Assembly: GCA_965214095.1 (NCBI GenBank)
Contig: OZ243938.1
Span: forward strand, 2,848,001 to 2,912,000
Origin: Candidatus Poribacteria bacterium
Lineage (GTDB): Bacteria > Poribacteria > WGA-4E > WGA-3G
DNA length: 64,000 nucleotides
Reading direction: 5' to 3'
Part shown: piece by piece, positions 9,588 through 59,058 of the stretch
How positions within the stretch are numbered: position 1 is the first letter of the stretch
How the letters are laid out: each line of letters begins with the position of its first letter
Position numbers and translations under genes: made by a program
Notes under the pieces: model-generated
The model's input: the letters and a program-made list of their open reading frames with translations, nothing else
Told to the model about the DNA's origin: nothing
Database searches by the model: none

Positions 9588-9702
9588 CCCCAAGCCGGTA
9601 GGTGCGGTTTCCTAACCGCACCGGAACCCACAATAAAACTGACCGTGAAAGGTTTTAGCACAAATTCGGTGCGGTTAGGAAACCGCACCTACCGGCTTGG
9701 GG
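9588..9702. repeat. GTAG-type REP doublet (REPIN-like)
   Basis: 36-bp perfect inverted repeat CCCCAAGCCGGTAGGTGCGGTTTCCTAACCGCACCG; each arm is itself a hairpin preceded by GTAG. Confidence 0.85.
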
Positions 9703-46117: not shown

Positions 46118-49100
46118 TTATTTCTGTGGTATTGCCTTATTGATTGTTAAATCATCAAAAGGTTGTCCGTTTTTGTCCGTAATGCGGAGGATAAAAGCAC
46201 ATGCGCCTTCAACATTACACACCTTCACGAGGATACTGTTCTTACCTTGTTTGAGTGTGACAGGAATGATATATGTATCAAGTCTAACAGCAAAGGTTTT
46301 AGTATGTGTGAATTCCTCTTTGCCGTTTAGCCATAATTTTCCTTGGTCGTCACTATCAAACCTTAGTTGGACTTCACGTTCATCAGGTGAGATAACGGTA
46401 GCGAAGGTGTAGAAGACTTGCCAATCAACATTCTTTTCACCGAGATGGATATAACCGTTTAACCCTGTATCGTTGAACTTTTTCCAACTGACTGGTCCAT
46501 TCTGTCCATCATATTTTGTAGTGAGGTCAATTTCCGTGATGTCTTCGGGTATGTATACAGTATCAAAGCCGGTCCCGCCTGCGTTGTCAAACGGACCAAG
46601 TTCCATCCATGCATCTTCTGTTATGAAACCAGTTTTTTGAATATGCTCATCTGCCTGTTCATGCAGACCATATTCACGATAATATTCGGCTAAACCGAAA
46701 TGTGTACCAATCCAAAGTCTCAGGCTATTGGGTTGATTTGGGTCAAGTTCAGCAATCATATTATCAATTTTTTGGATATACATATCTGCCTTTTCATTTA
46801 TGCCGTTATCCCGATAATATGTAATTAGACTGAGGTAGGCATTTAACTGAAGACTTAGACTTTCTGTCGTAAGGTTTCTCATTAGGATATCTATTTTCTC
46901 AATATGCTCATCTGCTTTCTCATCCATTCCATTATCGTGATAGAATTTAGCGAGAACAAGGTGTGCATTCAATTGGATGCTCCGACTATCTGCAAATGCG
47001 TCAATCAATTTATTTACCATGTCAGCGAAACCTTCTTTACCTTCAATATCTTTACCGATTTTGCCAATTCTTGCGAATAAATGACGGTGAAAACTTGGTG
47101 GTGTAATGACATTCTGTCCTCTCTGATAATCTGCAGCGGATAAGTATTTCACAAATTCCCCATACGCGTGTTCATACCATTCATTAGCGAGATATATCTC
47201 ACCGTTCCACAGGACATGATCAGAGATTTTTGGCTTTTGTGCTGAATGTTCAAGGATTTGTAACACATTTTCAGGTGATTGTTCTTCAGTGGCAGGGTTC
47301 ACATTAGGTTTAAGTTCTTGATTCTCTGCGTATGCATTCCTGATTACTTGATCCCAATCCCACAGTAGAATATTACCGCCTCCAACACTGAGAAGCGTCT
47401 TATGATCTGGTAAAAATATCAAATCTCCCACAGCCACGGAATGTCCATCAAGTGTGATAAGTTTATCTCCGGTCGCTACATCCCACAACCGAATTTTCCC
47501 ACCCCAGTAACCGACAATAAGTACTTTATTATCTGGTGAAAAGATAAATGTATCTCCATCTTCTTCTTCAGAAAAAAGCAATTCCTTAAAGTGAGGTTGT
47601 TTCGCTCTTCCTATGATACGTATCCGTTTCGTACTGCGGACAGCAATTAACGAACTGTCTGAAGAAAATACAAACTGATGTATAGGTTCTCGTTTTTTAT
47701 CGTTATCTGTCAATTCTGGAAAGAAAGAACTTAACTCCGTTCCAGTTTCCGTATCCCACAGTTGTACATGTCCACCTGATGTACCACTGACAATCCTCTC
47801 CCCATCTGGTGAAAATTCTACAGTTCTGATAAAAGGTTTGTCTTCATCGGAATCTTCATCAATGTCTGAGGTAATTATTTCACGTTTTTCACCGGTTTCT
47901 ATATTCAACAAGTAGATTTTATTGACAGCACCTTGTGCTAAGATTTTTCCATCAGGCGAAAACACCTCTCCAACACCCCATGGGAAAGACTTTAGTTCAC
48001 GTCCTGTGTTAACATCATTCAGACGTAGTACCCAATCATTAAAGTGTGGCTTAGTCGGGTCGGTTTGTTTACCGTGATTGAGCAGTTTGGTTCCATCTGG
48101 TGTGAACACATACGTTCTGTAAGTATTCCAATACAAATGTCCCTCAAGTACTGCTTTGATTATAGAAGTTGTTTTTTGAGTATTCTTCAGATCCCAAACA
48201 GTGATTATACCTTTGTTTGATACACTCACAAAACTTGTTCCATCATTTAATGCAGCTGTCGATCTTATCCACATGTGTCCAGTAATTTTGTTCTGTACTG
48301 GTCTTCTTGTCTCAATATCCCAAAATCGGACTGTACCATCGGCACTCCCGCTTGCGAGTGTTTTGCCATCTGGTGAAAAAGTTAATTGTTCAACAATGCT
48401 GAGATGACCTGTGAAGGTAGCAATAAATTCCCCTGTAAGACTGTTCCACAATTTGATAGTACTATCTTCACTACCACAAGCAAGCAGTGAACCGTCTGGA
48501 GAGAATGCCAATGAAGACGGTCTACTGTTCCTCTCGTTCTTCATAGGGTTTCCTACGATCTCTTTTCCATTTTCCGTTGATACACTCCACATGTTCCCTT
48601 CTATAGGCTTTTGTAGAACAATTAACTCTGCTCCTGTGGTTGTATCCCATATTTGTACTGTAGTATCCAGATTTCCAGTAGCGAGTTTTGTTCTGTCTGA
48701 AGAGAATTCCATAGTCAGTGCTTTGTTTGTCTTAGTGAAATAATTAGGCAAACTAACTTCTTTCCCAAATTTCCTAAACGTTGTTAACTTCTTACCTGTC
48801 GTAGTGTCCCACAACTCAATTTTTCCATCATTACTTCCGATAGCGATTCTATCTTCTGTAAGTGCGTAACTTTCAAGGTGCATGTATCCAGGTCTTTTTC
48901 CCAGATTTGTCGTTATCGTCTCTCCAGTTTCTACATCAATCCAATATATGTTTTCTCTTGACATGCTGAGACATACAAGCGTTTTGCTATCATTTGTGAA
49001 CCGCAACGTTTTCGCAGGAGGCAACTCATCTTGTAACGCTACTTTTCTCCCTGTAGTAACTTCCCGTATTTCAATTCCTGTTTCAAGCGGACTCCCACCA

Positions 49101-49639
49101 AAACTGGTGACTGGGTCTCCACCAGCAGATGCCATAAAGCGACCATCAGGTGAATACGCAATTGCTCTACTCATTCCGAGTAATAATGAAATCTCTTCAC
49201 CTGTTGCCACATCGTAAATCCAGACACCGGTATTACTACCCACTACCATTTGTCTGCCATCTGGTGAAAACTGAATTGTTCCCAGTCCTCCCTTTCCCAG
49301 ACGCATTTTCGCTCCTTTTGGCAGATTCCATTGTGGATAATTCTCCATTTTATTTTCTTCATCTGCGTCTACAGATGGTGGTTGTGTATTATCAGGTTGT
49401 TTTTTAGTAACAGGATTTTCTTGTTGCGCGAAAGCATTTCCTTGGAATAGTGCAAAATTATTGCCTTTTCCAAAACCTAACATCATTAACACTACCACGC
49501 AGGAAACGGTAGCGGTTAACCATGGGACAAATGGATTACTTGTAGATGGGGCAACAGGTTTTGTTTGTGAAATCTCACACATGATTTTGTCAGTAAGATT
49601 TGGTGTGATTTTGAATTTTGCTAATGCTTTTCTTATCAT
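46118..49639 (-). CDS. Membrane-anchored WD40 protein with helical repeats and C-terminal beta-sandwich domain
   Basis: TM segment, QWNLPKGAKMRLGKG, many WD40 repeats, 3 TPR-like repeats, then WMELGPFDN...SDDQGKLWLNG...LKQGKNSILVKV. Confidence 0.85.
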   Translation of the reverse strand: MIRKALAKFKITPNLTDKIMCEISQTKPVAPSTSNPFVPWLTATVSCVVVLMMLGFGKGNNFALFQGNAFAQQENPVTKKQPDNTQPPSVDADEENKMENYPQWNLPKGAKMRLGKGGLGTIQFSPDGRQMVVGSNTGVWIYDVATGEEISLLLGMSRAIAYSPDGRFMASAGGDPVTSFGGSPLETGIEIREVTTGRKVALQDELPPAKTLRFTNDSKTLVCLSMSRENIYWIDVETGETITTNLGKRPGYMHLESYALTEDRIAIGSNDGKIELWDTTTGKKLTTFRKFGKEVSLPNYFTKTNKALTMEFSSDRTKLATGNLDTTVQIWDTTTGAELIVLQKPIEGNMWSVSTENGKEIVGNPMKNERNSRPSSLAFSPDGSLLACGSEDSTIKLWNSLTGEFIATFTGHLSIVEQLTFSPDGKTLASGSADGTVRFWDIETRRPVQNKITGHMWIRSTAALNDGTSFVSVSNKGIITVWDLKNTQKTTSIIKAVLEGHLYWNTYRTYVFTPDGTKLLNHGKQTDPTKPHFNDWVLRLNDVNTGRELKSFPWGVGEVFSPDGKILAQGAVNKIYLLNIETGEKREIITSDIDEDSDEDKPFIRTVEFSPDGERIVSGTSGGHVQLWDTETGTELSSFFPELTDNDKKREPIHQFVFSSDSSLIAVRSTKRIRIIGRAKQPHFKELLFSEEEDGDTFIFSPDNKVLIVGYWGGKIRLWDVATGDKLITLDGHSVAVGDLIFLPDHKTLLSVGGGNILLWDWDQVIRNAYAENQELKPNVNPATEEQSPENVLQILEHSAQKPKISDHVLWNGEIYLANEWYEHAYGEFVKYLSAADYQRGQNVITPPSFHRHLFARIGKIGKDIEGKEGFADMVNKLIDAFADSRSIQLNAHLVLAKFYHDNGMDEKADEHIEKIDILMRNLTTESLSLQLNAYLSLITYYRDNGINEKADMYIQKIDNMIAELDPNQPNSLRLWIGTHFGLAEYYREYGLHEQADEHIQKTGFITEDAWMELGPFDNAGGTGFDTVYIPEDITEIDLTTKYDGQNGPVSWKKFNDTGLNGYIHLGEKNVDWQVFYTFATVISPDEREVQLRFDSDDQGKLWLNGKEEFTHTKTFAVRLDTYIIPVTLKQGKNSILVKVCNVEGACAFILRITDKNGQPFDDLTINKAIPQK

Positions 49640-49842
49640 GGTTCGTGCTTCCTCAAACTTTGTTTTTTGGGGTTAAGGTGACTGTATACGGTCTATGTTA
49701 GTATACGTAGAACTCACCTTTTGTCTGAATCGCGGAATAAGAGGTGTCTCACAGTTTTGGTCAACATGGGTGATTATATGGTAGATTTCAGAGCAAATGT
49801 AAGAGGCGCAATGAATTGCGCGACTACGAACGTGTTTTTTGT

Positions 49843-50008
49843 TATAGTTAAAACCGTAATTATTTACACACTACGGTAGGTTCGGTTTCCTAACCGAACC
49901 GGTGTTTGTTCAGTCTCGTAGTCAGGCAGAATGCGCGTATGGCATTCTGCATTGGTTAGTAAACCGCATCTACTGGGAAGTGTGCACGGATTTTTACATT
50001 TCGCTATA
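49843..50008. mobile_element. MITE type B (copy 2) with an additional nested hairpin
   Basis: Matches 41282-41419 plus inserted GTAGTCAGGCAGAATGCGCGTATGGCATTCTGC. Confidence 0.72.
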
Positions 50009-50049
50009 ATGAGAATCGATCAATTAGAAATGGTATTATATATGTATTG

Positions 50050-50137
50050 AAAAAGCAAAGGTGCTGCCTAACAAATGGTATGGTATAGTGCTGATGATTG
50101 CAGCTTCCACCTATCAATTGTTATTAGACAACACCTT
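50050..50137 (-). terminator. Long imperfect hairpin plus U-tract ending the ferredoxin cluster
   Basis: AAGGUGUUGUCUAA...UUAGGCAGCACCUU stem followed by UGCUUUUU on the minus strand. Confidence 0.6.
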
Positions 50138-50172
50138 AGTTTTGACTTACATTCTGTCAATTCGGTGTTATT

Positions 50173-50436
50173 TTACTCGAAATAGTCAGCGTTGATTTCA
50201 ATGAAATGCTCCCATTCCTCTGGAACATCTTCTTCCATGAAGATAGCCTCAACGGGACATTCCGGTTCACACACGCCACAATCGATGCATTCTTCGGGAT
50301 CAATATAGAGCATTTCAACTTCTTCAAAGTCGTCAGGTGCATCTGTTGGATGTGGGTGAATGCAATCTACTGGACACACATCAACACAAGAACTGTCTTT
50401 TTCGTCAATGCAAGGTTCGCAAATTACATAGGTCAT
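50173..50436 (-). CDS. Dicluster (FdxA-like) ferredoxin 3
   Basis: CEPC-x7-CVDVCP and CIDCGVCEPECP motifs; acidic. Confidence 0.93.
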   Translation of the reverse strand: MTYVICEPCIDEKDSSCVDVCPVDCIHPHPTDAPDDFEEVEMLYIDPEECIDCGVCEPECPVEAIFMEEDVPEEWEHFIEINADYFE

Positions 50437-50478
50437 ATTGTAGTTCTCCTTTCAAGTGATATAAGATAATTTTTTCAC

Positions 50479-50757
50479 TTAAACACTGGGTTGTTGTTCG
50501 TAATAATCAGCGTTTATTTTTATGTAATGCTCCCATTTTTCGGGAACATCCTCATCAAGAAATATAGCCTCCACAGGACATTCCAGTTCACACACGCCAC
50601 ATTCAATACATGTATCCGGGTCAATAAAGAGTTGGTTTACACCTTCAAAATCGTCTGCTTCATACTCAGGGATTGGTCTTATGGATTCACAGGGGCAGAC
50701 ATCTACACAAGAAGCGTCTTTTTCGTCAATACAAGGTTCACAAATTACATAAGTCAC
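50479..50757 (-). CDS. Dicluster ferredoxin 2
   Basis: CEPC...CVDVCPCES and CIECGVCELECP. GTG start with RBS. Confidence 0.92.
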   Translation of the reverse strand: MTYVICEPCIDEKDASCVDVCPCESIRPIPEYEADDFEGVNQLFIDPDTCIECGVCELECPVEAIFLDEDVPEKWEHYIKINADYYEQQPSV

Positions 50758-50809
50758 TGTGTGCTCTCCTATTATTATATACTATTTTCCTAATTTGTCA
50801 AATAAATGT

Positions 50810-51076
50810 TTATTCTTGAAAGTAATCAGCGTTTATTTCTATGAAATGTTCCCACTCTTCTGGCACTTCATCATCTACAAAAATTGCTTCAACAGGACAT
50901 TCTGGAACACAAGCATGGCAGTCAATGCATTCTTCTGGGTCAATGTAAAGTTGTTCTACTTCTTCAAATTTGTCTGGGTCTCCATCTTTCATTGGGTGAA
51001 TGCACTCAACTGGACACACCTCAGCACAAATATGGTCTTTTACGTCAATACATGGTTCGCAAATTACATAAGTCAT
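50810..51076 (-). CDS. Dicluster ferredoxin 1
   Basis: CEPC...CAEVCPVEC and CIDCHACVPECP motifs. Confidence 0.93.
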   Translation of the reverse strand: MTYVICEPCIDVKDHICAEVCPVECIHPMKDGDPDKFEEVEQLYIDPEECIDCHACVPECPVEAIFVDDEVPEEWEHFIEINADYFQE

Positions 51077-51169
51077 TTTCTATTCTCCTTTTATATGTTT
51101 GCTAATTACATTCGTTTATATTAGGTTGAATTCTGCATGCGATTATTTCCGACAAGGCAATGTATATGT

Positions 51170-51913
51170 TCAAATCAGTGGTAGAGCAGTATTCACTTGA
51201 GCAGAATGCCAATGTAATTTCTTGTTCTCAACGTCATTAGAGTAAGTATAACCACCTTGAACAAAACGGATACCTACCATTATCTCTAACCGCATAGCAA
51301 TTTCCTTCACCTCGGCGATATCTATTTCCACGTCTTTATCTTTCTCAACAAAAAAACCATTATGGAGTAAGCGGACTTGTAACCCATGTTCTTTCAGTGA
51401 AGTTGCCAGACGATTTGCTAATGTTTCTACATCAGAATACTGAAGTTCAGCACCGTCTTTCTGATTATATAAACTAAATCCGTTATGACGCACTTCAACG
51501 TGTAAACCTTCTTTTTCTACCAGCAATTCCAGTTGGGTCATATCCTCATCACGATAGATGATTCCCTCATTTGCCAAAACTTGCAATTCATACTCACGAT
51601 CAACTACTTTCAAGGGAAGTGTCCGTTCTGCGATTAAGGATGTGAGTATTTCCTTTATTTCTGGTGCACGATGTGTTTCTAATGCAAGACAAGTTATCGC
51701 ATCTTCCATATTGGACGTAGTTCTTCCAACGGAAATAGAATGACTCTTTCCACAACCGTTCATCCATTGCTTTATTATTTTGTCCATACCTTCTTGTGTT
51801 TCTTGAAAAGCATTGTCACTAACCAATTGTGGACCACTATTATAAGCAACGATTGATAGTCCAAGTTCATTGATTAGATTGTCTATTACTTTTTTGACAT
51901 CATTTGGATTCAT
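51170..51913 (-). CDS. Uncharacterised repeat protein, paralog 4 (MxPNxV family)
   Basis: Homologous to the three upstream ORFs. RBS GAGG. Confidence 0.8.
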   Translation of the reverse strand: MNPNDVKKVIDNLINELGLSIVAYNSGPQLVSDNAFQETQEGMDKIIKQWMNGCGKSHSISVGRTTSNMEDAITCLALETHRAPEIKEILTSLIAERTLPLKVVDREYELQVLANEGIIYRDEDMTQLELLVEKEGLHVEVRHNGFSLYNQKDGAELQYSDVETLANRLATSLKEHGLQVRLLHNGFFVEKDKDVEIDIAEVKEIAMRLEIMVGIRFVQGGYTYSNDVENKKLHWHSAQVNTALPLI

Positions 51914-51945
51914 GGTTCGTCCTCTTGCTGCAAAGTTTGTTTCGT

Positions 51946-52782
51946 TTAATAAGGGCGCGAAGTAAAGAGAGTTACAGTATTCCAGTTTATTTCAGATGTC
52001 CATTCGGGTTTTACATCCTTTTCAGGCCCCATACCATAACCACTTGCGGAGTATGCAATACCTGTCATTAACATTAAACGGGATGCCAATTCCTTTACCT
52101 CCGCGATATCTACTTCATCTTCTTGGTTCTTCTCTAAATTGAAACCATTCTGAATTAATCTCACTTGCGTTCCGGACTTTTCTATTACCGAATGCAAACG
52201 ATCTACTATTTTCTGAACCTTTGAGAATTGGATGTCAGGAGAACCATTCTCTGTTCGCGTTAAATCAAAACCACCATGGTAAACTGGAACGTTTATGTCT
52301 TCTTTTTTAAGTAAGGTTTCTAATTCAATCATTTCCTCATCACGGTAGTTCTTTACATCAGCAAGAATAAACACATGAAACCCACGATAGAATATTTCAA
52401 GTGGTAAATCTCGTTCTGCAATTAAGGTTTTCAAGATCTCCCTCACTTCTGAAATTCGTTGTGTGTCTGAAGCGAAGTATTCTATTTCTTCACAAATCTC
52501 AGATATAGTTTTTCCTATAGAGATATGGTGGTTTCTATGGTTTTTGTATAAACCGAAAAATTCCCTAGTCTTAGCAAACCATTCTTGCACTGCTTGAGGA
52601 ATTTCGTCGTTTTCATCTCTATCCAGATCCATCCACAGTTGAAGTATATTCTCCAGCCGTTCTCTTGAAACTACCGATTCGTCTTTGCTCACCAATAAAG
52701 GACCGCAATTGAACAGTGTAACGGGTAAGGCAAAATCGCTAATTGAAGATTTCAGTAATTTCTTAACATCATTTGGATTCAT
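51946..52782 (-). CDS. Uncharacterised repeat protein, paralog 3
   Basis: MNPNDVKKLL, ILKTLIAERDLPL, DIAEVKELASRL. Confidence 0.8.
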   Translation of the reverse strand: MNPNDVKKLLKSSISDFALPVTLFNCGPLLVSKDESVVSRERLENILQLWMDLDRDENDEIPQAVQEWFAKTREFFGLYKNHRNHHISIGKTISEICEEIEYFASDTQRISEVREILKTLIAERDLPLEIFYRGFHVFILADVKNYRDEEMIELETLLKKEDINVPVYHGGFDLTRTENGSPDIQFSKVQKIVDRLHSVIEKSGTQVRLIQNGFNLEKNQEDEVDIAEVKELASRLMLMTGIAYSASGYGMGPEKDVKPEWTSEINWNTVTLFTSRPY

Positions 52783-52869
52783 GGTTTATCCTCTTTTGAT
52801 AGATTGTTGTTCTTAAGCTTTGAGTCGTTCAGATCAACATGAATGTGAATTCCGTACCTGAGTTGACAA

Positions 52870-53613
52870 CTATGGCAAAGCAGTATTTATATCTGCATGT
52901 GTCCAGTGGATTTTTGTATCCAAGCCTGGCACTTTGTACCCGTAGTCTCCTTGGATATATCGGATACCTACCATAACACCTAATCGATATGTGAGTTCCT
53001 TCACTTCTGCAATCTCTATTGCGTCTTCTTGACTTTTGATCAGTTTAAAACCATCATGGAGTAAATATACATGTAGTCCGTGTCTTACCAAAAGAGACGC
53101 GAGATGATTTGCCAATGTATTGACTGCCGACAACATTACCTCAGGTCTATCTTCCTTCTGGCGTAAACTAAAGCCGCTATGACGTACTGGAATATCTAAA
53201 CCTTCCTCCTCCAAATATGTTTCCAGTGTTATCATATTTTCACTCCGATAGTCTATCCCTTCATCAGTTAGAATTTCTAATCGAAAACCTCTATCAACAA
53301 CAGTCAAAGGCAGTGCTTGCTCAGCAATTAGAGATTTCAATATATCCCATACCTCTGTTGTGCGATGTGTGTCTAAAGCAAGACACTTTGTTGCATCATC
53401 TCTCTTTTGCATAGGCAGTCCTACAGAAATGACCCAACTACAGTTATGTTTATTAGACCAGAAATTTAACAGATTCTTTACTCGTGATCGAGTTGAATAA
53501 CTTCCTGGACCGAAAATCAAAACAGGTCCATTGTGAGAAACAGACACATGGATAGGTAGATTGAGTTCAGCGATTAGAGTGTTTACAATTTCATAAACCT
53601 TGTTTGGATTCAC
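52870..53613 (-). CDS. Uncharacterised repeat protein, paralog 2
   Basis: GTG start after AAGGAG. ILKSLIAEQALPL, EIAEVKELTYRL. Confidence 0.8.
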   Translation of the reverse strand: MNPNKVYEIVNTLIAELNLPIHVSVSHNGPVLIFGPGSYSTRSRVKNLLNFWSNKHNCSWVISVGLPMQKRDDATKCLALDTHRTTEVWDILKSLIAEQALPLTVVDRGFRLEILTDEGIDYRSENMITLETYLEEEGLDIPVRHSGFSLRQKEDRPEVMLSAVNTLANHLASLLVRHGLHVYLLHDGFKLIKSQEDAIEIAEVKELTYRLGVMVGIRYIQGDYGYKVPGLDTKIHWTHADINTALP

Positions 53614-53671
53614 AATTCTGTCTCCTTTCTTTCAATCAGCATTGTTGTCAAATTTAGTGATACAGATCAAT

Positions 53672-54382
53672 TCAACGTCTGGGGAACCGCCATAATGAAA
53701 TACGGATATTTGCACCTGTACACTTTGTAGTTTTGAATGTATCCTCAGAGGTAGGTGTATTGTATGAATCCAGGACATAATTGATACCCGTGGCATCATC
53801 AATCCGTTTCGCAATTTTTCTCACTTCTGAGATAGGTATATTGGCTTCGGTAGATTTCTCTAATCTAAATCCACGATGAAACAATTTTACCTTGATGTTT
53901 TTCTCATTTAATTTTGTCTCAAAGTAATTCGTTACTTTTTTAAGTGCTTCAAGTAGTCCCTCAGTGTCCTGTTTTTTCTCTAATCTAAATCCACCGTGTA
54001 GAATTTTAACTGGATAACGCGTTGTGTCATTCTTATCCAATGAAACTAATCGAAAACCTTGATTAGTATTGCAGATAGGTAATTTCTGTTCTGCTATGAT
54101 GGATTCAATAAGTGCTTCTACCTTAAATGAATCCAACAATTCAATCGTAACTGCGTCAGGATCGGTTTTGGAATAGAATTCCATGATATCTTCTCTACCC
54201 GGATGACGCGTGTAAAACTTTCCGTCTTTGTTCCATTGATGGATTACATCTTTGATGCGACCTTCTGTCGTATTATCAGATGTAGAGGGATTTTGAGATG
54301 GAACTATATCAATTAATTCCATCGGAATCCCTTCCTGAACAATTAAGGTCTTTAGCAATTCCTTGACATCATTCGGTGTCAT
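53672..54382 (-). CDS. Uncharacterised repeat protein, paralog 1 (most divergent)
   Basis: MTPNDVKELL, IIAEQKLP, three GFRL motifs, ISEVRKIAKRI. Confidence 0.78.
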   Translation of the reverse strand: MTPNDVKELLKTLIVQEGIPMELIDIVPSQNPSTSDNTTEGRIKDVIHQWNKDGKFYTRHPGREDIMEFYSKTDPDAVTIELLDSFKVEALIESIIAEQKLPICNTNQGFRLVSLDKNDTTRYPVKILHGGFRLEKKQDTEGLLEALKKVTNYFETKLNEKNIKVKLFHRGFRLEKSTEANIPISEVRKIAKRIDDATGINYVLDSYNTPTSEDTFKTTKCTGANIRISLWRFPRR

Positions 54383-54400
54383 GTGCGTGCTCCTTTTAGA

Positions 54401-54432
54401 GTAAGAATGTAATTCGATTGAAAAGGTTACAT
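54401..54432 (-). promoter_or_regulatory. Putative ECF sigma promoter (copy B)
   Basis: ATGTAACCTTT-N10-TACATTCTTAC, directly upstream of the RBS of paralog 1. Confidence 0.75.
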
Positions 54433-54439
54433 CATAATC

Positions 54440-55054
54440 TCATTTTGTTTTCTGCGTTGCCTCTTTCCTAAAAATATTATCAAAATCACCGGGATATTCT
54501 TCCTTCATCCAAGCGACAACTTTTTTCTTGGCACGATGCAAGCGAACTTTCGTTGCCGACACTGTTATTTCCAGCTTTTTTGCTATTTCTTCCAAAGTCA
54601 TTTTGGGATTGGCGAGTTTCAATTCAAACACATCCTGTTCGGAAATTGGTAGTCGTTGTGACAGGGCATAGACAATCTCCATCTGTTCTTTTGCGATGAG
54701 GCGATAGATTGGTGAACGATGCTCAAGGTCTACCAAATATGCTTCTGGATTTCCTTCAATTGAACCGATTTCAAGTTTTCTCTGCTCTTTACGGAAGTGT
54801 GCTGCAATGAGTTGATGCGCGATGCTATACAACCAACTGGAAAAACTTTTGGGATTCCGAAGTGTGCTGAGATTCTGATGCACCTTAATAAATGTCTCTT
54901 GTACAAGGTCTTGCGCGGTTTCCCAATTGCCAACCCGTCTATAGAAGAAACTGAGAAGTGGACCTTCGTAACGGTGATAAAGGATTTCAAATGCTCCATC
55001 ATCATCAACGTCTAAATTTTGATGTACCAATTCTTCATCGTGGTAATCTTCCAT
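54440..55054 (-). CDS. ECF (sigma-70 group 4) RNA polymerase sigma factor
   Basis: AFEILYHRY, AQDLVQETF, FSSWLYSIA (region 2) and EEIAKKLEITVSATKVRLHRA (region 4). Confidence 0.93.
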   Translation of the reverse strand: MEDYHDEELVHQNLDVDDDGAFEILYHRYEGPLLSFFYRRVGNWETAQDLVQETFIKVHQNLSTLRNPKSFSSWLYSIAHQLIAAHFRKEQRKLEIGSIEGNPEAYLVDLEHRSPIYRLIAKEQMEIVYALSQRLPISEQDVFELKLANPKMTLEEIAKKLEITVSATKVRLHRAKKKVVAWMKEEYPGDFDNIFRKEATQKTK

Positions 55055-55088
55055 AACATCACACCTATTGGGCTGTTAATCTAAAAAT

Positions 55089-55148
55089 CGGGAATCGGAG
55101 TTCCCACCTGCAATACACAAGAGTCTGTAGGAGCGATCTCCGAATCGC
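55089..55148. repeat. REP-like hairpins (GAATCGGAG family)
   Basis: GGGAATCGGAGTTCCC and GTAGGAGCGATCTCCGAATCGC. Relatives at 27128-27192 and 63530-63597. Confidence 0.65.
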
Positions 55149-55161
55149 AACCTACTACTGT

Positions 55162-55264
55162 TGTAGTGAATTATAAATATAAGTTGACACTTTCGCCCCA
55201 CGGTAGGCGAGGTTTCCTAACCTCGCCGATGCAGAGTGTTCAAGTAATTTCAAAATCTACTATA
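55162..55264. mobile_element. MITE type A (copy 3)
   Basis: Near-identical to 41484-41586. Confidence 0.8.
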
Positions 55265-55308
55265 ATGAGACACATGCTTATTGTAAAGTTAGCAAAATGA
55301 TTTTATAT

Positions 55309-55340
55309 GTAAGAATGTATATCGGATAGAAAGGTTACAT
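55309..55340 (-). promoter_or_regulatory. Putative ECF sigma autoregulatory promoter (copy A)
   Basis: ATGTAACCTTT-N10-TACATTCTTAC, with arms and spacing identical to copy B. Confidence 0.75.
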
Positions 55341-56592: not shown

Positions 56593-57519
56593 TTACCGCA
56601 TCTTACCATCCTTAAACCGTGCAATAGCCCCGCGTTCAGCAAGTTCTGCTTTCGCATAATGTGCCGGCATCTGAGACGACTTCCACCGACCCGCCACCTG
56701 CATATCAACAACAGTCGCACCCGCAGAAGCAAGCGACATCGCAGAACCCACACGTAACGAATGCCCAGAAATAAACCCTTCAACGCCTGCATTTAATGCC
56801 CGTTTTTGAATGATACGTCGCGCAGAATGATCGTGCAACCTATTTTGCTGAATATGTCCACCACGGCGAATCTGCCTGAACAACGCACCGCTCTCAACAC
56901 CGCGCCCCTCAAGATATTTTGCCAGAATGATCCGTGTTCTATCACACACATACAGACTATCGCCGCGCCCCTCTTGGTCAGACTTTGATGTGTGAACTGT
57001 CAACGTCCTATCCCCCAAGTCTTCAACATCCACCGCCACCACCTCACTGATACGCAACAGGCAATCGCTCATCAGACGTATCATCCCAGAGTCTCGCAAG
57101 CCGGCAAGCGTGCCATCGGTTTCAGCCTGAATACAGACGCGTTCCACATCTTGCCAAATCAGACCATCCACCTGTCCGCGTCCCCTTGCTTTACCATCGC
57201 GTCGGATACCCGCCAAAGTTGCGTTTGTGATCGGCATCGCAAAATCCCCACCGACCTCGTGTTTCAACTGCCATTTCACTGCAGCTACCACCTGCGAAAT
57301 CGTTGATGGAGATTTCCCATTTTCGTGCAGTTCAGTCAGATACGCAGCCAGCAAACCATCGGACAACGTCTCACCTGCGGGTTTCCAATTTTCAATCGCT
57401 TGCAGTGCACGTTGATATGCCTTCTTCGTATTATCCGCAATACTGGAATGTATCAGATTTTTGATTTTCGGTCGTATTTCATCGATGGATGATTGTCGTT
57501 TCTCAAGAGCTGTTTCCAT
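56593..57519 (-). CDS. Tyrosine recombinase/integrase (Cre-like)
   Basis: RDSGMI...LRISE, SKSDQEG, SGHSLRVG, GRWKS..MPAHY catalytic residues. Confidence 0.92.
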   Translation of the reverse strand: METALEKRQSSIDEIRPKIKNLIHSSIADNTKKAYQRALQAIENWKPAGETLSDGLLAAYLTELHENGKSPSTISQVVAAVKWQLKHEVGGDFAMPITNATLAGIRRDGKARGRGQVDGLIWQDVERVCIQAETDGTLAGLRDSGMIRLMSDCLLRISEVVAVDVEDLGDRTLTVHTSKSDQEGRGDSLYVCDRTRIILAKYLEGRGVESGALFRQIRRGGHIQQNRLHDHSARRIIQKRALNAGVEGFISGHSLRVGSAMSLASAGATVVDMQVAGRWKSSQMPAHYAKAELAERGAIARFKDGKMR

Positions 57520-57626: not shown

Positions 57627-57914
57627 TCACGCAATGGGTGGCTTGCCCCTACGTTCAAACAATTCATTCAACGCATCTCCAAGGATCTCCTGAAGGTTCT
57701 TGTCCTCCTCCGCAGCAATCACGCGTAACTGCCGATGTACCTCTGGCGAAAAATATCCTGAGATATTCTTCTTCCCACGCCGTGAAGGTGCAACATTCTC
57801 CTTATGTTTCGTATCGTTAGACACAGACTCTATCGTTGTTGCAGAATCTGCAACCTGCTGTTGAACCTCATTATCCTTGATAACATCCGCCGGATTCACC
57901 TTCTTTTTAGACAT
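57627..57914 (-). CDS. Ribbon-helix-helix protein (type Ib partition ParB/ParG-like)
   Basis: PSRRGKKNISGYFSPEVHRQLRVIAAEEDKNLQEILGDALNELF; follows a parA remnant. Confidence 0.8.
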   Translation of the reverse strand: MSKKKVNPADVIKDNEVQQQVADSATTIESVSNDTKHKENVAPSRRGKKNISGYFSPEVHRQLRVIAAEEDKNLQEILGDALNELFERRGKPPIA

Positions 57915-57966: not shown

Positions 57967-58128
57967 TCATCTAACCAACCTACAACCCCATTTCGCGGCA
58001 CTTGACTGCGGGTCAAGGTCAAGCAAAACGGTCAAATGTCCTGCCGTCTCCGCTGCAACAGCGAGGTTCGTCGCAAGCGTTGTTTTCCCTGTTCCCCCTT
58101 TACGTGACAATATCGCAAGCGTCTTCAT
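57967..58128 (-). pseudogene. parA: Truncated ParA ATPase (first ~48 codons)
   Basis: MKTLAILSRKGGTGKTTLATNLAVAA...LLDLDPQSSAAKW then stop. RBS AAGGAG. Confidence 0.85.
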
Positions 58129-58284: not shown

Positions 58285-59058
58285 CTATTTCATAAAACGC
58301 CATTTTAGGTTCGCCCAAGTCGTTGCCAACTTATCGCGCGGGGTTACAGAAAGCACTTTTTCAACCCCGATCTCCATCAACTCCTGTATTTCTTTTTGAG
58401 TACGTTCGATGTTAGAAATCCGCACATCATCCAATATACCATCAAGATATGGATTCGCACCGCGACCCAACCATACTACATTATCATTTGGGGCAATTTC
58501 CCCACCTATCTCCTTTTCGTTATCCAACTTACCATCAATATAAAGCTTACCGACACCAGTCTCCGAATCGTAAGTACCGGCAATATGTACCCATTTAGAA
58601 ATCGGTAAATCTACGTCACTCAAAACAGCCGCTCCCCCATTCGCTCTGGTGACTCTGAGTTCTGCTTTCCGATTGTCGCGGGGTCCTACTTTGTATGTTG
58701 ACCCTTTCGTGACACCAGTACCCCCGGAAACTGATTCTGCTCTCAAAAATAACCACATTTCCACGGTTACAGCTTCAACCAAATCAAGGGAGACATCGTC
58801 AGCGATTTCCACAAAATCTTCCTGTGCCTCACCACCGAAATCCAGACCACGACGAAATTTACCATTACGCCACTCAGCACCCATGATTTTGCCATCGTTT
58901 CCATTACCAGAAAGGTCTTTCACCACATCGCCATCAATGGATTCAAATGTATACAGAAGCACAGTGTGTCTATCTTGAGCAAAGGTTGGTTGGCTGATAA
59001 TACAGAAAAACAGTATCACTAGTATCAACCAATTTTTTATATCTATTAAGTTATACAT
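58285..59058 (-). CDS. Secreted LamG domain protein with C-terminal TTWxxLK motif
   Basis: DLSGNGNDG, WVHIAGTYD, GILDDVRIS. Ends KLATTWANLKWRFMK. Confidence 0.88.
   Translation of the reverse strand: MYNLIDIKNWLILVILFFCIISQPTFAQDRHTVLLYTFESIDGDVVKDLSGNGNDGKIMGAEWRNGKFRRGLDFGGEAQEDFVEIADDVSLDLVEAVTVEMWLFLRAESVSGGTGVTKGSTYKVGPRDNRKAELRVTRANGGAAVLSDVDLPISKWVHIAGTYDSETGVGKLYIDGKLDNEKEIGGEIAPNDNVVWLGRGANPYLDGILDDVRISNIERTQKEIQELMEIGVEKVLSVTPRDKLATTWANLKWRFMK

Follow-up and report, generated by a model that had tools for sequence, protein, structure and literature searches.

The window analysed here is a stretch of 64,000 nucleotides (nt) from the genome of a Candidatus Poribacteria bacterium (contig OZ243938.1). 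Between its positions 50058 and 55339, and all on the minus strand, the list of open reading frames (ORFs) shows a gene for a sigma factor of the extracytoplasmic function (ECF) class, four genes for paralogous orphan proteins of 236-278 amino acids (aa), which we label PAR and number W1 to W4, and three ferredoxin genes, followed by a hairpin. The coordinates agree with an earlier reading of this DNA made without database searches (hereafter, the sequence-only reading), which had described eight ORFs in this order on one strand. Intergenic gaps measure 32-93 nt and each contains an AGGAG-like ribosome-binding site. The features of the locus, including three promoter-like motifs (P1 to P3), are the following:

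55310..55339, minus strand: P1, ECF-type promoter-like motif (pattern match and position weight matrix, PWM)
54440..55054, minus strand: ECF (group IV) sigma-70 factor, 204 aa (Pfam, TIGR02937)
54402..54431, minus strand: P2, second copy of the P1 motif, between the sigma stop and the W1 start (pattern match and PWM)
53672..54382, minus strand: PAR-A (W1), 236 aa, isoelectric point (pI) 8.4 (tree, ortholog alignment)
52870..53613, minus strand: PAR-B (W2), 247 aa, GTG start (ORF, alignment, tree)
51946..52782, minus strand: PAR-C (W3), 278 aa, with an insertion of ~27 aa past the second helix (ORF, alignment, tree)
51170..51913, minus strand: PAR-B (W4), 247 aa, the modelled paralog (AlphaFold2, AF2, model)
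50810..51076, minus strand: ferredoxin 1, 88 aa, FdxA-like, divergent module-specific clade (Pfam Fer4 and Fer4_7; tree)
50774..50801, minus strand: P3, perfect sigma-70 consensus TTGACA-N16-TATAAT (12/12 match)
50479..50757, minus strand: ferredoxin 2, 92 aa, divergent clade (Pfam, NCBIfam, tree)
50173..50436, minus strand: ferredoxin 3, 87 aa, slowest-evolving copy (NF045480, PDB sequence matches, tree)
50049..50137, minus strand: terminator-like long hairpin, stem 50137-50058, then a U-run (RNA folding)

The long hairpin with which the sequence-only reading closed the operon holds up as well: the structure after ferredoxin 3 has a folding energy of -33.1 kcal/mol (z -3.86), was equalled in stability by 0 of 200 shuffled sequences and is followed by a U-run. 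It is imperfect and was detected by folding; an exact-seed inverted-repeat search of positions 49640-50180 found none.

The sigma factor and its candidate promoters

The first gene encodes a sigma factor with the Pfam domains Sigma70_r2 (PF04542, residues 25-92, 2.4e-18) and Sigma70_r4_2 (PF08281, residues 127-178, 4.7e-08) and no other sigma domains. This combination of regions 2 and 4 in a protein of ~200 aa, without regions 1.1 or 3, is that of the ECF sigma factors, the largest class of alternative sigma factors, and the TIGR02937 sigma70-ECF model was matched at 84.5 bits (cut-off 42.9); no NCBIfam equivalog or subfamily model was matched at its own cut-off. The protein ends in a conserved C-terminal tail of ~20 aa (AWMKxEYPGEFDxIF), in which W182, E186, Y187, P188 and F191 are invariant in the ortholog alignment (A4). 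A co-encoded anti-sigma factor is usual for ECF sigma factors, but not obligatory. Here, as had been noted from the sequence, no membrane anti-sigma gene comes after sigma, and scans of the operon with Pfam, with NCBIfam and for transmembrane (TM) segments gave none.

For comparison we used a phylum sample of 121 genomes and a synteny set of 20 fetched loci plus the window (21 loci), sigma orthologs being called at E<=1e-30. A 30-nt motif, TGTAACCTTT-N12-CATTCTTA, emerged from the aligned regions upstream of the sigma genes; it has two matches in the window and none in any of 100 shuffled versions. The first, P1, lies 255 nt upstream of the sigma start, and the second, P2, in the gap that separates the sigma stop codon from the start of W1, with AAGGAG and ATG after it. 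Both copies, one before sigma and one between sigma and the first PAR gene, are present in 21/21 loci, and in the whole 5.25-Mb genome the exact motif occurs at P1 and P2 only. With a PWM built from the 42 sites, P1 and P2 score 46.3 bits each, against 17.1 bits for the next-best site. The motif consists of a TGTAAC -35 element, a T-rich stretch and a CATTC-type -10 element in an AAC-N16-CAT arrangement (TGTAACC-N15-CATTC). TGTAACC-N15-CATTC stands upstream of sigma in all 21 loci, and an AAC -35 element about 16 nt from the -10 is what characterizes autoregulatory ECF promoters. In the phylum sample the motif was found in 51 of the 121 genomes, usually exactly twice per genome.

Since the motif occurs nowhere else in this genome, the regulon of the sigma factor, as far as the motif indicates, would essentially be this locus. 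Some relatives, unlike this genome, probably have extra regulon members, because they carry a third motif copy elsewhere. Among ten such copies that we fetched (L056-L065; genomes G018, G026, G042, G046, G056, G069, G076, G083, G097 and G116), four precede genes for ~810-aa double-redoxin proteins resembling tetratricopeptide repeat (TPR) proteins (two recognised by Pfam, two by N-terminal sequence), four precede genes for secreted ~630-aa WD40 proteins (Pfam on one), one stands before a WD40 gene and one before nothing obvious. Three looser core patterns (e.g., GTAACC-N14-16-CATTC) gave 9, 13 and 3 matches in the genome, the first of these numbers being close to the chance estimate; two correctly spaced looser matches outside the locus lie within genes of the opposite strand and were not counted as regulon members.

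Conservation and expression of the module

The order sigma, PAR (1-6 copies), ferredoxin (1-3 copies), on one strand, was found in 21/21 loci. This is the outcome of the neighbourhood check that the sequence-only reading had proposed, and in the loci examined the PAR homologs are always linked to sigma and ferredoxin genes. Neither of the two results that would have refuted that reading, a hit of the paralogs to a characterised family or homologs away from ECF sigma and ferredoxin genes, was obtained. PAR, the sigma ortholog and the motif were each detected in 51 of the 121 genomes with the same tallies: 30/31 in one genus (g1), 20/45 in a second (g2) and 0 in 17 other genera. Across this sample the PAR genes are always in tandem, in 1-7 copies, and in the genome studied here the family is present at this locus alone. 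The exceptions are G009, with one motif copy and neither sigma nor PAR, G102, with sigma and PAR but no exact motif, and G112, which has only fragments of both sigma and PAR. The synteny in 21/21 loci, the identical genome tallies and a private promoter occurring exactly twice in the genome agree with the self-contained, sigma-centred unit that had been suspected from the sequence. Many loci also have the same chromosomal neighbours, namely secreted-protein genes upstream and three conserved genes downstream, which, from their first residues, would encode adenylosuccinate synthetase and the ribosomal proteins S9 and L13. Clustering of the flanking ORFs of the 21 loci revealed no kinase or two-component gene conserved beside the module. 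We found no description of the operon in the accessible parts of the literature on Poribacteria and on the ECF sigma, ferredoxin and anti-sigma context.

RNA-library data from one study provide weak support for the expression of the module, as contigs of related organisms, for the most part 90-99% alike, were present in 4/4 runs. The three ferredoxin genes lie together on a single contig (50156-51053), and sigma and PAR-A are represented on others. Two contigs cross gene boundaries, one joining sigma to PAR-A and the other joining ferredoxin 1 to a PAR gene. No contig covers W2, W3 or most of W4, which is silent on their expression since the relatives have other paralog sets. The bridging contigs bear on the co-transcription that was to be sought in metatranscriptomes according to the sequence-only reading, but such contigs give no levels, ends or strand, and presence in an RNA library is not proof of transcription.

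An orphan family of repeat proteins

In the alignment of the four paralogs, M1, P3, N4, V6, I-A-E-x-x-L-P, G-F-x-L and I-x-E-V are invariant columns, which substantiates the shared motifs recognised earlier by eye (MxPNxV, LIAExxLP, GFxL and IxEV). W2-W4 are 25-30% identical to W1, and identity to W4 is 47% for W2 and 39% for W3. A tree of 124 rows, made with a quick method, separates the orthogroups PAR-A (W1-like), PAR-B (W2/W4-like) and PAR-C (W3-like). PAR-A is always the first gene after P2, and its 21 first-position orthologs (alignment A5) are 50-85% identical; PAR-A is the obligatory member of a module, and the number of PAR-B/C copies varies. PAR-A is mildly basic (pI 8.4), whereas the pI is 4.9-6.0 in the other paralogs and ~4.05 in the ferredoxins. 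Kyte-Doolittle profiles of the PAR proteins (maximum 19-residue score 1.0-1.3) contain no TM-like segment, again as anticipated. Each paralog has two Cys, none of them in an invariant column, and W4 has two conserved His (H143 and H184) in equivalent hairpins.

The four proteins had been said to match no recognised family, and sequence, profile and fold searches all concur. There was no Pfam hit above cut-off, no NCBIfam hit and no PHROGs hit, and PADLOC returned a single chance-level row (W3, E 0.0095). The alignment profile reached at best E 0.068 against PDB sequences, and a search of the ESM Atlas for relatives gave no usable hit. A Pfam match of W4 to PF22863 TraI_middle was discarded (24.4 bits against a gathering threshold of 27.6, over 34 residues and in one of the four paralogs). 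The PAR profile found 224 homologs in a collection of 5.8 billion proteins, for which the sole source-named organism is Candidatus Poribacteria. Against 1.84 billion representatives it retrieved 16 proteins at E<=0.001, all of <=279 aa and several much shorter, which we take to belong to the family or to be fragments of it; that search brought up neither a fused nor a distant form.

The AF2 model of W4, based on a 77-sequence alignment, has high confidence (pLDDT 93.2, pTM 0.88) and consists of six successive helix plus beta-hairpin units. The hallmark of the repeated unit is a helix with LIAExxLP at its end and a hairpin with HxGFxLxK after it. The PAR-A model (21 sequences, pLDDT 71.4) has the same topology minus one helix. 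Comparison of the W4 units with hhalign gave probabilities of 90-98% for the pairs U1-U3, U3-U4, U3-U5 and U4-U5, 58% for U1-U4 and 7.5% for U1-U5. The profile-profile homology of units 1, 3, 4 and 5 indicates that the PAR family arose through internal repetition of a unit of ~35-40 aa.

Foldseek, the check suggested with the sequence-only reading, found no characterised fold in the PDB for the W4 model at E<=0.001 (best E 9.1e-3, TM-score <0.2). Its top rows are chains of BmrR, whose C-terminal domain is of the GyrI-like / SHS2 repeat kind also considered for PAR, at E 9e-3 to 3e-2, probability <=0.10 and TM-score <=0.17. Among 48,161 chains compared with VIA-align the best Z was 6.9, for an unrelated chain, and none attained Z>=8, and BFVD contained no match to the W4 model at E<=0.001; a weak or missing fold match is not proof of a new fold. 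The nearest arrangements are the alpha-beta-beta domains of GspL, GspM, PilO and PulM, from type II secretion and type IV pilus assembly, with VIA-align Z of 5.2-6.2 over 74-112 residues, values below 8 that may mean a common arrangement only. As in these domains, a helix plus beta-hairpin is repeated in PAR and the sheet is backed by helices; unlike them, PAR is cytoplasmic, has six units instead of two and shows no sequence similarity. In secretion and pilus assembly these domains serve homo- and heterodimerisation, which we take as a lead only and not as evidence. A class I anti-sigma domain or zinc-binding anti-sigma (ZAS) domain was also considered for PAR and rejected, since there is no Pfam or NCBIfam anti-sigma hit, the fold alternates helices and beta-hairpins instead of being helical, and no Cys is invariant. 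We read PAR as soluble, cofactor-less alpha/beta repeat proteins that most likely bind other proteins, as adaptors or scaffolds for the ferredoxins expressed with them or for the partners of these ferredoxins.

Three FdxA-like ferredoxins

All three ferredoxins carry the motifs CxxCx7CxxxCP and CxxCxxCxxxCP, with C6, C9, C17, C21, C50, C53, C56 and C60 invariant in all of them. They are acidic, as originally described, but the description of near-identical copies has to be corrected, as pairwise identities are 61-76%. The best FdxA models of NCBIfam (NF045480 FdxA_Actino / NF045490) scored 95.4 bits for ferredoxin 3, 85.9 for ferredoxin 1 and 78.6 for the remaining copy, in matches that span only profile positions 1-77 or 1-79 of 107. 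These scores lie below the equivalog cut-off of 125, and we therefore call the proteins FdxA-like, not equivalogs. Against PDB sequences, ferredoxin 3 aligns near full length with 2v2k (3.5e-25), 1bc6 ('7-FE FERREDOXIN', 1.1e-23), 1h98 and the 7Fe-named Azotobacter ferredoxin I. The module ferredoxins share the Cys pattern of these FdxA 7Fe ferredoxins, with which ferredoxin 3, the copy compared, aligns over nearly its full length (E 1e-17 to 3.5e-25), from which we infer one [3Fe-4S] and one [4Fe-4S] cluster per protein. They differ from them in being shorter (87-92 aa), in having an insertion of ~10 residues between the cluster motifs and in forming three tandem paralogs, two of them fast-evolving. 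In two relatives of genus g2, a module ferredoxin (L041:6436-6696 and L042:6413-6673, both on the minus strand) reads TGA in frame exactly where CxxCxxCxxxCP has its second Cys, the frame being otherwise intact and conserved. This TGA, seen in 2/21 loci, may correspond either to a selenocysteine ligand or to a recent break; the three ferredoxin ORFs of the window are uninterrupted and have Cys at that position.

In addition to the three module copies, this genome contains one distant FdxA-like match elsewhere. P3 ends 16 nt before the start of ferredoxin 2, and a P3-type consensus with variable spacer was found 14-17 nt before the orthologous ferredoxin in 13/14 loci of genus g1 and 0/7 of genus g2. 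In a FastTree phylogeny of 69 ferredoxins, rooted at the midpoint and read without inspection of its supports, the three positions come apart: the position 3 copies, on short branches, group near those of module-less genomes, and the copies at positions 1 and 2 are divergent. Given these branch lengths and P3, we read ferredoxin 1 as a stress-specific copy and ferredoxins 2 and 3 as dually controlled, with ferredoxin 3 probably doubling as the general 7Fe ferredoxin of the cell.

A thioredoxin-fold protein beside the module

In 7/21 loci, a co-oriented gene between P1 and sigma encodes a protein of ~437 aa with TPR repeats and a Redoxin/AhpC-TSA thioredoxin-fold domain with a WCGPC motif; an eighth locus has a remnant of it. 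We take this TPR-redoxin to be cytoplasmic, as its printed N-terminus has no signal peptide by eye. By clustering of flanking ORFs, members of the TPR-redoxin group adjoin the module on one side or the other in 12/21 loci. This suggests a role in redox or thiol stress and, together with the ferredoxins, fits the redox theme put forward in the sequence-only reading. The window locus has no redoxin gene; paralogs exist elsewhere in the genome, without the promoter motif. Outside the window, G000:C1:1822390-1828924 contains a tandem cluster of TPR-redoxin paralogs that are large and multi-domain (800 and 1214 aa as open frames), with weak Fer4-like matches beside them.

A proposed self-contained switch and its alternatives

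We propose, as a probable though by no means secure interpretation, that the locus is a lineage-restricted, self-contained and positively autoregulated ECF switch, whose outputs are PAR and extra 7Fe-type ferredoxin, with a cytoplasmic role in redox or thiol stress and PAR as a binding or scaffold protein. The sigma factor would read the two near-identical promoters P1 and P2. From P1, before its own gene, it would establish positive autoregulation; from P2, after the sigma stop, it would drive strong PAR expression and, by read-through up to the hairpin terminator, that of the ferredoxins. PAR and ferredoxin 1 would then be the output of the switch and not its inhibitor, and ferredoxins 2 and 3 would also be under the constitutive sigma-70-type promoter P3. 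The response would supply extra oxygen-tolerant 7Fe-type ferredoxin, accompanied in many relatives by TPR-redoxin, and its physiological role is likely to be a cytoplasmic redox or thiol/oxidative-stress response. The genes, their conserved linkage and co-distribution, and the promoter motif with its uniqueness are observed; recognition of the motif by this sigma factor, the inducing signal, the function of PAR and the cluster type of the ferredoxins are inferred.

Several points weigh against this interpretation. Pfam, NCBIfam and Kyte-Doolittle analyses revealed no recognisable anti-sigma, ZAS or TM protein in the operon that could hold the switch off. The sampled genomes are close kin, so that the co-distribution counts are not independent events, and the copy numbers of PAR (1-6) and ferredoxin (1-3) show no correspondence. 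Short ferredoxins of this family (E<=1e-20) occur in 116/121 genomes, module-less ones included. Because the family is so widespread and ferredoxins 2 and 3 have a promoter of their own, the position of the ferredoxins at the 3' end could be partly historical, not functional. The "dedicated" ferredoxins of the sequence-only reading hold only in part, given the occurrence of the family in module-less genomes and the sigma-70-type promoter of ferredoxin 2 in 13/14 g1 loci. P3 is not free of difficulty either, since its -10 box ends 14-17 nt before the start codon, which implies a very short transcript leader. Finally, the PAR searches brought up neither a cofactor motif nor a catalytic signature, and neither a matching fold nor a fusion partner; the function that we assign to PAR is a guess.

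The sequence-only reading saw in the paralogs soluble sensor or anti-sigma proteins, or subunits of a hetero-oligomer, roles that stay hypothetical. The best-surviving alternative, which we nevertheless consider unlikely, is that PAR-A is a new soluble anti-sigma factor that binds sigma, perhaps through the C-terminal tail, and releases it upon a redox cue, with PAR-B/C as modulators or decoys and the ferredoxins as the sensed species or as output. The window operon encodes no other candidate inhibitor. PAR-A always comes directly after sigma, apparently as a single copy at each locus; none of the paralogs is more conserved, and it alone is basic (pI 8.4 vs 4.9-6.0). The short invariant tail of sigma past region 4 could be its docking site, and sigma and PAR are gained and lost together. 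P2 counts against such an inhibitor, since textbook ECF/anti-sigma pairs are usually co-translated without a promoter between them, whereas a sigma-dependent promoter separates sigma from PAR-A in 21/21 loci, so that PAR-A would be made in excess of sigma upon induction. Moreover, the predicted PAR fold is an alpha/beta repeat and not a helical anti-sigma domain, and PAR has neither a ZAS motif nor a conserved Cys.

Slightly less likely is a regulatory role for TPR-redoxin, which through its WCGPC motif would act as a thiol-switch regulator of sigma, with a logic like that of RsrA or RshA and, in this genome, in trans from paralogs elsewhere, PAR and the ferredoxins being pure output. Its gene between P1 and sigma in 7/21 loci (plus the remnant), its adjacency to the module in 12/21 and its own copy of the sigma promoter in 4 further genomes suit this idea, as do the combination of protein-binding TPR and thioredoxin-fold domains and the existence of paralogs in this genome. 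However, TPR-redoxin is missing from the window locus and from 9/21 loci, no copy in this genome has the promoter motif, and proteins of the Redoxin/AhpC-TSA kind tend to be enzymes and are frequent outputs of regulons.

A bolder and improbable idea is that PAR represents a fold family not seen before, through which transcription would respond to the redox state of the ferredoxin pool: PAR-A would hold sigma by its conserved C-terminal tail and let it go when PAR-A itself or its PAR-B/C partners engage reduced or damaged ferredoxin. If true, this would be a soluble ferredoxin-sensing anti-sigma system without relatives outside two genera of sponge-associated Poribacteria. Least convincing of all is the view of the cluster as cargo of a mobile or defence island, with PAR as a diversifying set of recognition or immunity-like proteins that has no part in redox metabolism, for although the module is patchy in genus g2 (20/45), varies from 1 to 7 paralogs and in the window has a tyrosine recombinase, an antitoxin-like gene and a ParA fragment just upstream, there were no PADLOC or PHROGs hits except the chance-level W3 row (E 0.0095), many loci share the same chromosomal neighbours and the recombinase neighbourhood is that of the window alone (1/21 loci).

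The autoregulated switch with PAR and ferredoxin as its outputs, which we favour, is of interest because ECF cases without anti-sigma factor and with a one-locus regulon are minimal switches from which orthogonal transcription can be understood and engineered. In this module the sequence alone reveals sigma factor, promoter and targets, and PAR, an abundant and well-folded family without known relatives, is an entry point to new function. Its confinement to two genera of a sponge-associated phylum and its ties to ferredoxins and a thioredoxin-fold protein suggest that the module may reflect adaptation of these uncultured bacteria to fluctuating oxygen in host tissue.

Surroundings of the locus

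Just upstream of P1, the minus strand carries genes for a tyrosine recombinase (Phage_integrase, 56593-57519) and a ribbon-helix-helix (RHH) antitoxin-like protein (57627-57914) and a short fragment (57967-58128) that resembles ParA, so read from its first residues alone. At the site of the recombinase many relatives have the TPR-redoxin gene or the conserved secreted-protein genes; the stretch may be the remnant of a mobile element that reshaped the upstream side of the locus. Farther upstream, and unrelated to the module, a minus-strand gene (58285-59058) encodes a 257-aa Laminin_G_3 (concanavalin-like lectin) protein with a hydrophobic N-terminus that looks by eye like a signal peptide.

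Directly downstream, at positions 46118-49639 (minus strand), lies the gene of a WD40 beta-propeller protein of 1173 aa that has a single TM helix at its N-terminus (Kyte-Doolittle 2.01, residue 37). Large WD40 proteins of that kind follow the module in ~8/21 loci. Four homologous WD40 ORFs of relatives, three of them directly after the module, matched the sigma query and may be sigma-tether-propeller fusions; the copy in the window has no sigma part.

The window also contains copies of a palindromic element resembling repetitive extragenic palindromic (REP) sequences, with a loop, GGTTAGGAAACC, flanked by complementary arms. The GGTTAGGAAACC 12-mer has 668 copies in the genome, against ~0.6 expected, and 500 of them have complementary flanks. 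REP-like copies in the window lie at 49879-49900 and ~55205-55236, as well as at 9606, 9673, 20369, 41323, 41365, 41533, 41746; one copy thus falls within the 5' leader of sigma and another downstream of the operon. The RNA-library contigs of relatives omit ~101 nt of the leader (55162-55264) beside the mapped REP-like copy, and pile up at both places.

Comparison with known systems

An autoregulated ECF regulon is a system of a known kind. What is unusual here is the combination of no recognisable anti-sigma factor, a regulon of one locus, a promoter repeated after the sigma gene and orphan targets with an unmatched fold. The closest parallels are SigR-RsrA of Streptomyces and SigH-RshA of mycobacteria, which are likewise based on group IV sigma factors with only sigma-2 and sigma-4 domains and a promoter of their own kind before their own gene, are cytoplasmic and, as in many relatives of our genome, have a thioredoxin-fold gene in the regulon. 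Unlike these pairs, the poribacterial module encodes no ZAS or other recognisable anti-sigma factor, its regulon is, by motif, a single locus, and its main products are an orphan repeat family and ferredoxins.

ECF sigma factors without a cognate anti-sigma factor are also known, controlled by a C-terminal extension, at the level of transcription or by phosphorylation. The poribacterial sigma factor resembles them in lacking an adjacent anti-sigma gene and in its conserved segment past region 4, but this tail has only ~20 residues instead of the ~100 of the regulatory extensions, and the neighbourhood of the gene has no conserved kinase or two-component gene.

At the DNA level, the promoter motif is comparable to the sigma-X, sigma-W and sigma-M promoters of B. 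subtilis, which have a TGTAAC or TGAAAC -35 element, a spacer of 16-17 nt and a CGxx -10 element. Both have the TGTAAC -35 element, the T-rich stretch past AAC and the AAC-N16 distance to the -10, whereas the -10 of the poribacterial motif is CATTC instead of CGTC or CGTA, and its conservation extends over ~30 nt.

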